IMG/VR virus record: IMGVR_UViG_3300002026_000019
Span: 5,684-69,683 of that record
Direction: 5' to 3' (one strand)
DNA from: a virus
Taxonomy: Duplodnaviria; Caudoviricetes
Length of the DNA stretch: 64,000 nucleotides
Part shown: piece after piece, positions 37,504 through 39,931 of the stretch
How positions within the stretch are numbered: the stretch's first letter is position 1
Layout of the letters: each line of letters begins with the position of its first letter
Notes under the pieces: model-generated
The model's database searches: none
Seen by the model: the letters and a program-made list of their open reading frames with translations, nothing else
Told to the model about the DNA's origin: nothing
Translations under genes and position numbers: made by a program

Positions 37504-37539
37504 TTAAAACCTACATCCAATGAAGTTGTTGAAGCCGTT
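37504..37539 (-). repeat. Stranded duplicate of the last 11 codons plus stop of the 38798 gene
   Basis: Encodes NGFNNFIGCRF* versus NGFNNFIGRRF* at 38798-38833. Confidence 0.85.
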
Positions 37540-37541
37540 GA

Positions 37542-37703
37542 TTACGACTGCCGTGCTTGTTTCCGGGGGCAATCACTTTTGTCACAGTAGCGAATCGCTA
37601 CAGCACAATTGCAGTTGTTTGCAACTCTCTTTTCAACGATTGGTTTTGGAATCATTGGAGGGCTGTCTGACTTACTGACTGTTCGAGGTACCTTAATTTT
37701 CAT
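37542..37703 (-). CDS. 53-aa ORF coupled to the endonuclease gene
   Basis: MKIKVPRTVSKS...CNC...CDKSDCPRK; ATGA overlap. Confidence 0.45.
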   Translation of the reverse strand: MKIKVPRTVSKSDSPPMIPKPIVEKRVANNCNCAVAIRYCDKSDCPRKQARQS

Positions 37704-38740
37704 TTTTGACTGTCCAGAAACGGGTTGGAAACAGCAACAGACCGTAGCCTAGTTTCAAGCTTTGGGTTTAACAAGCACAAGGAGTCTAGCATTTTCTGTC
37801 TCGGGAGATTGAACCACCCTGTCGGAACATTCAACACGACTTTGTTGTGGATCAAGATCAACCGAAACTCGTACCCTTGTTTCAGGCACGCACGAGCCTT
37901 TGCCACCGTCTTGCGATAGTCGACGCTCAACAAGGTGAAGATGCTCTTCACTTCAATCAACCTGTTCTTCGGTGCGTAGTAGAAGTCTGGATAGTAAGTC
38001 CGAATCTTGCTGGCGTACCGGTACCGAATGTTTGGTGTTCCTTCAGCCTTGCTTGTAGACAACTTGCCGGGAATGAAGCCGGGCCGAGATTCAAGGTACT
38101 TCAAGGCTGCGTCTTCATACCCCTGACACTGAACAACACGTTCTCCAAACTCAACTGTCTTCAGCCTAGGTCCGCCGACAGCGTAATCACACTTCGGACA
38201 ACCAGCGTTCCGCACTACGGTTTTGGAAATGAATGGCTTACGAGTGAATTCCTCACCACACGTGCAACGGTGTTTGACAGCAGTGCGAAACCCTCGATAA
38301 GGTTCGGCAAGCGTGATGTGGGGGAACTCTTGTGCAAGGCGCGAAACGTACTCGTCTGCAAAATCTTGATGCTTGCAGGTCGGGCAGTTCGACGTCCCAA
38401 GCTCGACCGATTTCGGAATAGCCTCGAACCTTGTTTGACAGACTGTGCACTCAAACGTACACCAACCACCAATGATTCGATAGTTGATCGGGCGGAGAGT
38501 GCTTTTGAGTTTCTTCAACCGATTCAAAAACTCTGCAACCGGTATTGATTGCTGCGGACCTTGACACTTGCACACAGTCTTGGTTGTCGCAAGCCACAAC
38601 GTTGTTCGGTTTGAATAAACCGCTTTGCAGTGTAAGCATTTGAAGGTGCACTTCTTTGTGTAGCCAGCATACTCAAGAAGCTCAACCGTTTTAGGGAGGC
38701 GCTTCTTGATTTCTTTTAAACTCACGGATACGTTGGGCAT
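37700..38740 (-). CDS. Zn-ribbon repeat plus PD-(D/E)XK endonuclease (free-standing homing-endonuclease-like)
   Basis: Repeated CxC/CxxC...CPxC units, QGYEDAAL, YYPDFY...LIEVKS. Confidence 0.82.
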   Translation of the reverse strand: MPNVSVSLKEIKKRLPKTVELLEYAGYTKKCTFKCLHCKAVYSNRTTLWLATTKTVCKCQGPQQSIPVAEFLNRLKKLKSTLRPINYRIIGGWCTFECTVCQTRFEAIPKSVELGTSNCPTCKHQDFADEYVSRLAQEFPHITLAEPYRGFRTAVKHRCTCGEEFTRKPFISKTVVRNAGCPKCDYAVGGPRLKTVEFGERVVQCQGYEDAALKYLESRPGFIPGKLSTSKAEGTPNIRYRYASKIRTYYPDFYYAPKNRLIEVKSIFTLLSVDYRKTVAKARACLKQGYEFRLILIHNKVVLNVPTGWFNLPRQKMLDSLCLLNPKLETRLRSVAVSNPFLDSQK

Positions 38741-38764
38741 TCTATACTCCTTTGAATTCTCTTC

Positions 38765-38774
38765 AAATTAGTAT
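38765..38774 (-). promoter_or_regulatory. CTAATTT motif driving the endonuclease gene
   Basis: ATACTAATTT lies 25 nt before ATG 38740. Confidence 0.55.
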
Positions 38775-38797
38775 TTACATTTATCCGTGTTGCTGAA

Positions 38798-39931
38798 TTA
38801 AAAGCGTCTTCCAATAAAATTATTGAATCCGTTCACTCGGGTCGTGGGCGCGTTGATGACTGACAGGACACCTGTTGCATACGGGTTGCGCATTTGAGTT
38901 GCGCCAATAGAACCGTCACCAGAGAAGAACCCTTGCGCGGTGATCTGCTTCTTGAGTGGAACCACGGTGTCTTGAATGCGTGCTTCAATGCGACCGAGTG
39001 CAGAATCCAATTGCGGTGTGCGGTCAACGTTTAGTGAGACACCTTGACCGCTGAAGTCAAATGCCAACGACCCCTCGGCCATAAGCTGTGCACCCAACGC
39101 CCAATAGGTCGTGCAGATGATCCACGCGTCAAGCAACATCCCTTGCATATTCGTACCGGTAAACCCGGTCGGCATTCCCGTCATGTTGAACATGTACAAA
39201 CCACGTTCTAGATAACCGACTAGGTCGCCTGACGTGTATTCAAGTTCAGGGATGATGTTTTCAATGCGTGACTTGTTGAGGAAGTCTTCAACCAACGTCA
39301 TTGCCAACGCGATCTGCGGGGTGATGTTCCAGTACTTGAATGAATAGGATTTCGGGCGACCTCTGACGGTGGCGCGAAGCATGAGAAGGTTTGGCTTCAA
39401 CGACGGTGGAATGTCGATTGCAGGTATCAAGATAGCAGTTCGATCAAACCCTGCGTTCACAGTCACGTCAGCATCAGCCAACGATTTAGGTGACAGCAGT
39501 TGCTCGTTGTTTCCTGAGTAGATTTGATACGTTCCGTTCATTGCTGGAGTGTAACTCAACGGCACTGAAAACTCAGCAATCGTGTCACCAGTCAGCAAAA
39601 CGATTTCGCTGTCGCGTCTATCTGCTTTCGGATCGACAAGCAAGTTGTCGAAGAACTGGTACTTCTCACCGTCAGACGACAAACACCGCCATCGGAGGCG
39701 GTATTCTGTGGTCTGTGTCACGCCAAGCTCAGGCAACACAATTGCGGATTCCCATTGACCGGGCGTAGCGGTTGGCACCGCATTGTACTGTGCGATGACA
39801 GATTTATCTTGGTCTAGCAACGTCACCTTCGGAAATCCGGGACGTGGCACGACTGGACTGTCATTGTCGTCCAAAATATCTAGGTCGACTGTCAACGCTG
39901 AACCATCCATAGCTCTAAATGCCATGACCAA
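38798..39931 (-). CDS. Putative head-tail connector/neck protein
   Basis: Ig-like beta-rich N-terminus; C-terminal AFDFSGQGVSLNVDR resembles adaptor proteins. Function is inferred. Confidence 0.55.
   Translation of the reverse strand: MVMAFRAMDGSALTVDLDILDDNDSPVVPRPGFPKVTLLDQDKSVIAQYNAVPTATPGQWESAIVLPELGVTQTTEYRLRWRCLSSDGEKYQFFDNLLVDPKADRRDSEIVLLTGDTIAEFSVPLSYTPAMNGTYQIYSGNNEQLLSPKSLADADVTVNAGFDRTAILIPAIDIPPSLKPNLLMLRATVRGRPKSYSFKYWNITPQIALAMTLVEDFLNKSRIENIIPELEYTSGDLVGYLERGLYMFNMTGMPTGFTGTNMQGMLLDAWIICTTYWALGAQLMAEGSLAFDFSGQGVSLNVDRTPQLDSALGRIEARIQDTVVPLKKQITAQGFFSGDGSIGATQMRNPYATGVLSVINAPTTRVNGFNNFIGRRF

Follow-up and report, generated by a model that had tools for sequence, protein, structure and literature searches.

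Known homing systems and the connector cassette

Intron-less homing in phage T4 is carried out by the free-standing endonucleases SegF, SegG, and MobE, enzymes of the GIY-YIG or HNH families whose genes are intergenic. To our knowledge, the Seg and Mob genes of T4 have not been described as carrying a duplicate gene end. Such duplicates are known from fungal mitochondria, where mORFs have produced gene hybrids of atp6 in Allomyces macrogynus and of atp6, atp9, cox2, and nad3 in Glomus sp. (PMC3630166). The mORF insertion brings an in-phase foreign C terminus followed by an endonuclease open reading frame (ORF) and leaves the native C terminus downstream; the native copy is closer to the sequences of relatives than the inserted copy is, and the two are nearly identical as protein (PMC3630166). 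Here we describe a comparable layout in a phage. The DNA analyzed, called the window throughout, is a 64,000-nucleotide (nt) stretch of a virus of the Caudoviricetes (positions 5,684 to 69,683 of IMG/VR record IMGVR_UViG_3300002026_000019) and comes from a 69.7-kb viral contig with an estimated completeness of 26%. In it, a head-tail connector (neck) gene is followed by a free-standing nuclease gene, beyond which lies a second, intact copy of the connector gene's end. In our view this insert is likely an intron-less homing cassette bringing its own replacement for the 3′ end of the connector gene.

The closest published analogue of the cassette is the fungal mitochondrial mORF. As in mORFs, there is an in-phase inserted C terminus, then an endonuclease ORF, then the native C terminus downstream. 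The stranded copy is likewise closer to relatives than the working copy: the native tail of locus L005, the nearest nuclease-less relative of the window (connector 88% identical in amino acids [aa]), matches the stranded tail at 29 of 36 nt and the working tail at 25 of 36 nt. Unlike mORFs, the cassette sits in a phage structural gene rather than an organelle gene, its nuclease combines zinc ribbons with a PD-(D/E)xK domain (DUF7487) instead of belonging to the LAGLIDADG or GIY-YIG families, and its duplicated segment is very short, 36 to 57 nt. It also holds what looks like a captured neighbor gene and, ahead of the nuclease, a further tail copy that has decayed; these two elements are additions beyond the earlier picture. 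The likeness to SegF, SegG, and MobE lies in a free-standing nuclease gene beside an essential or conserved gene, in mosaic identity with boundaries at the nuclease gene, and in a presumed route by which nuclease-less relatives would be cut and repaired from the nuclease-bearing genome with co-conversion of the flanks. In a survey of nuclease genes located at phage recombination boundaries, duplication is described only within the DNA-binding repeats of the nucleases, not of target gene ends (PMC10448857). Our literature searches for a phage report of a replacement-gene-end layout gave organelle cases only, and those for DUF7487 gave nothing; their coverage was incomplete, and this is not proof of absence.

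Connector gene ends in occupied and empty loci

The connector gene lies at 38798 to 39931 on the minus strand, as do all the genes around the cassette, and its likely start is the ATG at 39925, giving a protein of 375 aa. It matches the PHROG 17327 head-tail connector family (E value of 3e-98), shares ∼40% amino acid identity with the connector proteins annotated in the jumbo phages Yoloswag, Y3, PaBG, and Lu11, and has 263 homologues in the protein database. Its last 11 codons and TAA (38798 to 38833, minus strand; the working tail, or tail 1) are in frame with the gene and encode NGFNNFIGRRF-stop, in agreement with the canonical NGF-x-NFIGRRF C terminus of the connector family. The stranded native end (tail 3) is found at 37504 to 37539, also on the minus strand, and consists of 11 codons and TAA encoding NGFNNFIGCRF-stop; its homology may begin 3 nt earlier, at an ATC (37540 to 37542), and it sits within a 23-codon open frame starting with TTG (37504 to 37572). 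The two tails agree at 28 of 36 nt and share 10 of 11 residues and the stop codon, with five synonymous codon differences and a single replacement, R to C. An earlier note, made from the sequence of this DNA alone, had reported both tails at these positions, the 10 shared residues, the five synonymous codons, and a T-ATG right after the stranded stop, and direct comparison bears out each of these. The ATG belongs to the next gene (36870 to 37502), and the stop/ATG pair looks like the original junction. The note had also argued that the stranded copy uses C-ending codons typical of core genes of this genome. This is weakly supported, in that neighboring genes prefer AAC over AAT but are mixed for TTC/TTT and for Gly codons.

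The duplication is peculiar to this gene. When the last 11 residues and stop of every window ORF of at least 100 aa, on both strands, were searched against up to 3 kb downstream, the connector pair alone was recovered, at 11 of 12 positions; no other pair reached 8 of 12. The locus was then compared with its relatives. The nuclease has 12 homologues in the protein database, and the loci compared were L011, L012/13, L014-16, and L017 (40 to 52% identity to the window nuclease), which with the window make five distinct occupied lineages. The nuclease-less set comprised L005, L006/7 (connector 77% identical in amino acids), L009, L010, and 11 loci, more distantly related, taken from JGI metagenomes and IMG/VR; 15 loci were scanned, and in 14 distinct lineages the sequence extends 1 kb or more beyond the connector. 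L018 and L019 have too little downstream sequence for a second tail to be scored. Scans of IMG/VR and the JGI metagenomes with a connector-alignment profile gave 15 loci (13 distinct once overlaps were merged), none with a nuclease or a tail duplicate. Single-protein scans of IMG/VR with the connector, the nuclease, and the ART-like next gene found no close relatives, and megablast against the GenBank phage collection found no near-identical relatives of the locus.

All five occupied lineages have the same layout: connector, its own tail, nuclease, stranded intact tail, next gene. The nuclease directly follows a connector homologue of 374 to 375 aa in every occupied locus examined. An intact second tail was found in 5/5 nuclease-bearing lineages and 0/14 nuclease-less lineages (Fisher's exact test, ∼9e-5, calculated by hand), and the best match downstream of the connector in the 15 nuclease-less loci reached 6 of 12 positions. 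No nuclease remnant was found near the connector in nuclease-less relatives. The earlier note had named relatives that keep both copies without the endonuclease as the finding that would speak against it; no such intact pair was seen among the 14, with a decayed copy in L010. Instead, nuclease-less phages of the sister lineages have one tail joined directly to the next gene, mostly by a stop/start overlap (TGATG in L009, L010, and L018) and otherwise with short gaps. The TGATG overlap is kept by the stranded tails of L011, L013, L014, and L017, whereas all five working tails end in TAA. The note had further expected the native end in relatives to stand directly before the ART gene. The native tail was of the predicted type, but in L005 a Cys-motif ORF follows it instead.

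Empty alleles that match the stranded tails were found in L018, L019, L009, and L005, and each stranded tail, compared with every other tail, agrees best with a native one from a nuclease-less phage. For example, the stranded tail of L011 matches the native tail of L009 at 34 of 36 nt, compared to 22 of 36 for the working tail of L011, and the stranded tail of L014 matches the native tail of L018 at 33 of 36 nt, compared to 21 of 36 for its working tail. When 24 nt of downstream DNA are included, the L014 stranded tail agrees with the empty allele of L018 at 65 of 69 positions and the working tail at 36 of 69. Working and stranded tails of the same genome agree at 21 to 28 of 36 nt. In the 3′ half of the connector gene body, the window and L005 are 78 to 91% identical. 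The proposal of the earlier note that a homing endonuclease was inserted and left the native end behind is supported by these matches of stranded tails to native tails in sister lineages.

The L017 and L018 connectors are 95% identical, and only L017 has the nuclease. Between them, a 360-nt stretch free of mismatches gives way to a final 90 nt with 16 mismatches; because the mismatches are confined to this end, a foreign 3′ tract accompanies the nuclease. GGA AGR CGY TTT TAA closes the working tails in the window, L011, and L013, compared to the native ending CGG AGR, and L011 and L013 carry the nearest relatives of the window nuclease. Judged from these alignments, the shared ending fits descent of the tail together with related nucleases. 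Depending on the locus, the stranded copies have their left edge 12 to ∼16 codons ahead of the stop, which places the insertion point within the stretch coding for PTTR(V/I)NGF, a peptide in which T364, R365, and G368 are invariant.

Movement of the cassette has been recent. L011 and L013 share 661 identical nt in the 3′ part of the nuclease gene, up to its stop codon. Past this stop, there are 4 mismatches in the 34 nt of the stranded tail, all synonymous, and the following 400 nt differ by 12 to 30%; the connectors of the two are 87% identical. In this alignment, the breakpoint falls exactly at the nuclease/stranded-tail junction, which shows recent transfer. The stranded tails of the different loci differ by 56 synonymous and 16 replacement codon changes. 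Since these differences are mostly synonymous, the tails appear to have diverged while still coding and to have been stranded recently and independently.

The nuclease gene, spacer, and probable captured ORF

The nuclease gene (37700 to 38740, minus strand) encodes 346 aa, in which three zinc-ribbon repeats precede a C-terminal PD-(D/E)xK domain. The protein matches Pfam DUF7487 (PF24308) at 51.2 bits (cutoff of 27), residues 201 to 290 aligning with profile positions 134 to 220 of 220, and it has weak matches to zinc-ribbon families and a TnsA-like endonuclease. In an alignment of 13 homologues, residues E209, D252, E263, and K265 (QGYE ... PD ... E-V-K) and the zinc-ribbon cysteines are invariant. 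An AlphaFold2 model (pLDDT of 83.6) has three zinc-ribbon units and a C-terminal alpha/beta domain. In an exhaustive VIA search, model residues 190 to 303 matched TnsA (1t0f) with a Z score of 9.5 (root-mean-square deviation of 2.9 over 105 residues), Vsr with 7.0, I-Bth0305I (3r3p) with 6.6 and 20% identity, and I-Ssp6803I (2ost) with 4.2; many other PD-(D/E)xK enzymes matched at Z scores of 4 to 7. Foldseek with the whole model against the PDB gave weak matches only (E values above 0.05), mostly to PD-(D/E)xK nucleases, and the sequence profile of the nuclease had a zinc-ribbon match and no other significant match among solved structures in the PDB. On the E...(P)D...(D/E)-x-K motif and the restriction-endonuclease-like fold of the model, the nuclease is a member of the PD-(D/E)xK superfamily. 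An HNH endonuclease, the label carried by PHROG 559, was considered and rejected, because no HNH family in Pfam matched at an E value of 0.1 or below and the catalytic domain folds as PD-(D/E)xK; the "HNH" name appears to be a loose annotation.

The restriction-endonuclease-like alpha/beta core is shared with I-Bth0305I, Vsr-like homing endonucleases, TnsA, and I-Ssp6803I. Unlike I-Bth0305I, TnsA, and I-Ssp6803I, the cassette nuclease combines the classic E...PD...E-x-K motif with an N-terminal array of three or four zinc ribbons. It is also free-standing, whereas that set is intron or intein encoded or consists of transposase subunits.

The two parts of the protein vary differently. The homologues P0126, P0127, and P0129 (L011:2176-3216; L012:232-1449) have an identical C-terminal stretch of ∼220 residues and differing N-terminal zinc-ribbon arrays, with one additional repeat in P0127 and P0129. 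Such a pattern suggests that presumed DNA-binding modules have been swapped on a constant catalytic domain, and modular exchange is likewise suggested because the N-terminal zinc-ribbon parts of the L011 and L013 nucleases do not align.

A paralogue of the nuclease lies elsewhere in the window (45529 to 47136). It is 535 aa long, combines DUF7487 with DUF4379, is 39% identical to the cassette nuclease over the catalytic part, and heads a three-ORF plus-strand island (45529 to 48280) amid minus-strand genes. Its extra C-terminal domain of ∼200 aa, which starts with FDPGV, is found also in the homologue P0136 and corresponds to a gene of its own in L009 and L010, located ∼5 kb upstream of their connector. 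The tail-duplicate scan found no duplicated gene end beside this paralogue.

Between the connector stop and the nuclease ATG lies a 57-nt spacer (38741 to 38797, minus strand) that contains a third, decayed tail copy (tail 2; ∼38765 to 38794), a promoter-like motif, ACTAATTT (38765 to 38772), inside this relic, and an AAGGAG ribosome-binding site (∼38747 to 38752), all on the minus strand. When the spacers were aligned, tail 2 was clear in L012/13 and L011 and further decayed in the window: it reads TTRINAFTNFIGY-stop in L012/L013, TTRVNAFTNL in L011, and ATRINVNTNL in the window. This copy illustrates neutral decay and implies an earlier round of tail replacement. The earlier note had recognized the cassette and its CTAATTT motif but not the tail copy that holds the motif. 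The motif itself recurs as ACTAATTT five times in the window, compared to 1.4 expected, at 25316, 38765, 44135, 45440, and 50637 (all minus strand), always on the coding strand and 17 to 65 nt before an ATG, and often with AATA or AAATA in front. L011 and L012/13 likewise have it ahead of their nuclease genes. Because its five window copies lie on the coding strand only and 17 to 65 nt before start codons, ACTAATTT is a candidate phage-specific promoter motif. A search of the spacer for sigma-70-like promoters gave one match, no more than in shuffled sequences.

On the other side of the nuclease, a 53-aa ORF (37542 to 37703, minus strand) has a start codon overlapping the nuclease stop (ATGA) and ends in a Cys motif (N-C-x-C ... 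C ... C-P-R). At 12 of 19 residues it is identical to a 70-aa ORF directly after the connector in L005, and the C-terminal Cys motif occurs also in genes just after the connector or the stranded tail in L006/7, L012/13, L014-16, and L017. Members of this family stand directly after the connector in L005 and L006/7 and after the stranded tail in L012/13. From its sequence and position, the 53-aa ORF looks like a captured neighbor gene within the cassette. Its place upstream of the stranded tail would require capture from the neighborhood of a donor or one-sided, illegitimate repair. The insert of the earlier note, an endonuclease and nothing more, was thus right about the nuclease but incomplete, since the block also holds this ORF of a family native beside the connector in relatives.

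Proposed homing, alternatives, and the downstream island

The nuclease has intact catalytic residues, is patchily present at one fixed site, and has moved recently and horizontally relative to its flanks, as is typical of homing endonucleases. The cassette would consist of tail 1, a short spacer with the promoter-like motif and ribosome-binding site, and the zinc-ribbon/PD-(D/E)xK nuclease gene, inserted 12 to 16 codons before the connector stop. During mixed infection, the nuclease would cut nuclease-less connector alleles near the stretch coding for PTTR(V/I)NGF, and the break would be mended from the nuclease-bearing genome; homology on the left would be provided by the gene body and on the right by the tail and downstream DNA of the recipient. 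The recipient would thereby gain tail 1 and the nuclease, and its own tail would end up farther downstream, outside the gene but with its link to the next gene intact. The window would differ in having picked up, between its nuclease and stranded tail, a small Cys-motif ORF from the neighborhood of the donor. Tail 1 may be immune to cleavage. The divergence of the working tails may reflect such immunity, ordinary divergence of the donor, or survivorship, because diverged direct repeats resist recombinational deletion.

Several points weigh against this reading. Native tails agree with one another at 22 to 30 of 36 nt, and tail 1 agrees with them only slightly less well, at 20 to 28 of 36; deliberate recoding of tail 1, as the earlier note had it, is not demonstrated by such values. 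The position of the 53-aa ORF needs an extra capture or illegitimate-joining step, and tail 2 needs a second event. L010 has a decayed tail duplicate without a nuclease, and therefore breaks or recombination at this spot can leave a scar without one. Cleavage, the target site, and immunity are predictions. Genomic context covers four lineages and the window, and nine further homologues on other contigs (among them P0128-P0132 and P0135-P0137) stand outside the count. Finally, the single-protein scans of IMG/VR gave no empty allele of the window lineage with an ART-like gene directly after the connector.

If the locus were instead a general scar of recombination bordering a hypervariable island, with the tail duplicated by short-homology or illegitimate exchange and the nuclease a passenger rather than the cause, the variable surroundings would be explained: the ∼7.4 kb between the connector and a conserved 292-aa gene differs among all relatives, and in L013, unlike L011, a Cys-motif ORF has been inserted precisely at the TGATG junction. 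L010 fits as well. At L010:7128-7611, this locus has no nuclease and holds a truncated Cys-motif ORF, a decayed connector tail copy (30 of 48 nt, with one frameshift and the stop lost), and a duplicated start (M-E-L) of the next gene, an arrangement probably left by an older round of break repair at this position. A mere scar is nonetheless improbable, since every nuclease-bearing lineage but no nuclease-less one has an intact duplicate, the nuclease lies directly against both tails in all cases, identity of 100% runs exactly up to the nuclease stop, and the nuclease has intact catalytic residues and a fold in common with a known homing endonuclease. Matters stand still worse for a single ancient insertion that was inherited vertically, leaving a nuclease now resident and immobile and perhaps serving to exclude competing phages. 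The nucleases of the five lineages are merely 40 to 52% identical, tail 2 is an old relic common to the window, L011, and L012/13, and L014 and L017 are ∼83% identical in gene body and nuclease alike, all of which would suit great age. However, the stranded tails are intact and synonymously different while tail 2 is decayed, they match the native tails of different nuclease-less phages at 33 to 34 of 36 nt, identity is mosaic with sharp boundaries, and the nuclease is patchy among relatives as close as L018 and L017. We therefore regard an ancient, immobile insertion as very improbable.

The stranded tail might also be retained for a function, an idea that is no obstacle to homing and bears only on why the tail persists: it could close a short leader ORF through which the next gene keeps its ribosome-binding site or its translational coupling. 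Every stranded tail does lie in an open frame of 21 to 39 codons with an in-frame ATG, GTG, or TTG (window 37504-37572, L011:3134-3250, L014:4633-4695, and L017:4472-4558), which ends at the native stop beside the next ATG, and the native TGATG overlap is kept in four of the five loci. Yet coupling needs no conservation of the peptide, whereas the differences are mostly synonymous, and sequences read by eye showed no consistent ribosome-binding site before the mini-ORF starts, so that a leader function seems unlikely. The existence of two in-frame endings raises the further idea that an intron or ribosomal bypass joins the gene body to the downstream tail, or that the assembly is at fault. Nothing positive was found for any of these, and we give them hardly any credence. 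Splicing, even from a divergent intron, is improbable: no Rfam family matched within 37300 to 39100, even at E values up to 1, and the upstream ORF is complete and needs no splicing. The upstream tail already completes the canonical protein, and the same layout recurs in independent assemblies from different samples, which excludes an artifact.

Homing of the cassette into the connector gene remains the preferred reading, and a broader form of it has, in our estimate, an even chance of being correct. By this account, zinc-ribbon and PD-(D/E)xK proteins of DUF7487 would form an unrecognized family of phage homing endonucleases that invade the coding end of an essential virion gene with a replacement end, as mitochondrial mORFs do. 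Recurrent breaks would drive the turnover of cargo in the downstream island (ART-like and Cys-motif genes). Break repair would also account for the L010 scar, the captured ORF, and the series of tail copies. The cassette by itself would show that a selfish nuclease can settle in the coding sequence of an essential phage structural gene without an intron or intein, by means of a spare gene end. DUF7487, an uncharacterized Pfam family, would gain a testable function and a predicted target, the PTTR(V/I)NGF coding stretch, and the natural pairs of occupied and empty alleles make the hypotheses of cleavage and immunity directly testable. The site would also link homing to the boundary of a hypervariable accessory island in jumbo-type phages, which suggests that breaks made by nucleases help to drive phage mosaicism. 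Annotators can use short stranded gene ends beside nuclease genes as markers of recent homing.

The next gene (36870 to 37502, minus strand) begins with an ATG one base after the stranded stop and encodes 210 aa with a weak ART/PARP-like character. It scores 22.5 bits against Pfam PARP, below the cutoff of 26.7, and is 28% identical in amino acids to a 744-aa PARP-like protein of L006/7. The ART label of the earlier note therefore has Pfam matches behind it, but these fall below the curated cutoff. The Cys-motif ORF that separates L012/L013 from L011 is 100 aa long (L013:1894-2192) and is inserted exactly at the TGATG junction after the stranded tail (L011:3250, where it is absent); judged from these positions, the family behaves as a movable unit beside the connector tail. 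The island as a whole extends over 31410 to 38797, from the connector to the 292-aa gene (30531 to 31409), a homologue of the gene directly following the connector in Yoloswag, and its contents differ in every relative. In the window it holds a second weakly PARP/ART-like protein (33995 to 36397) in addition to the one at 36870 to 37502.

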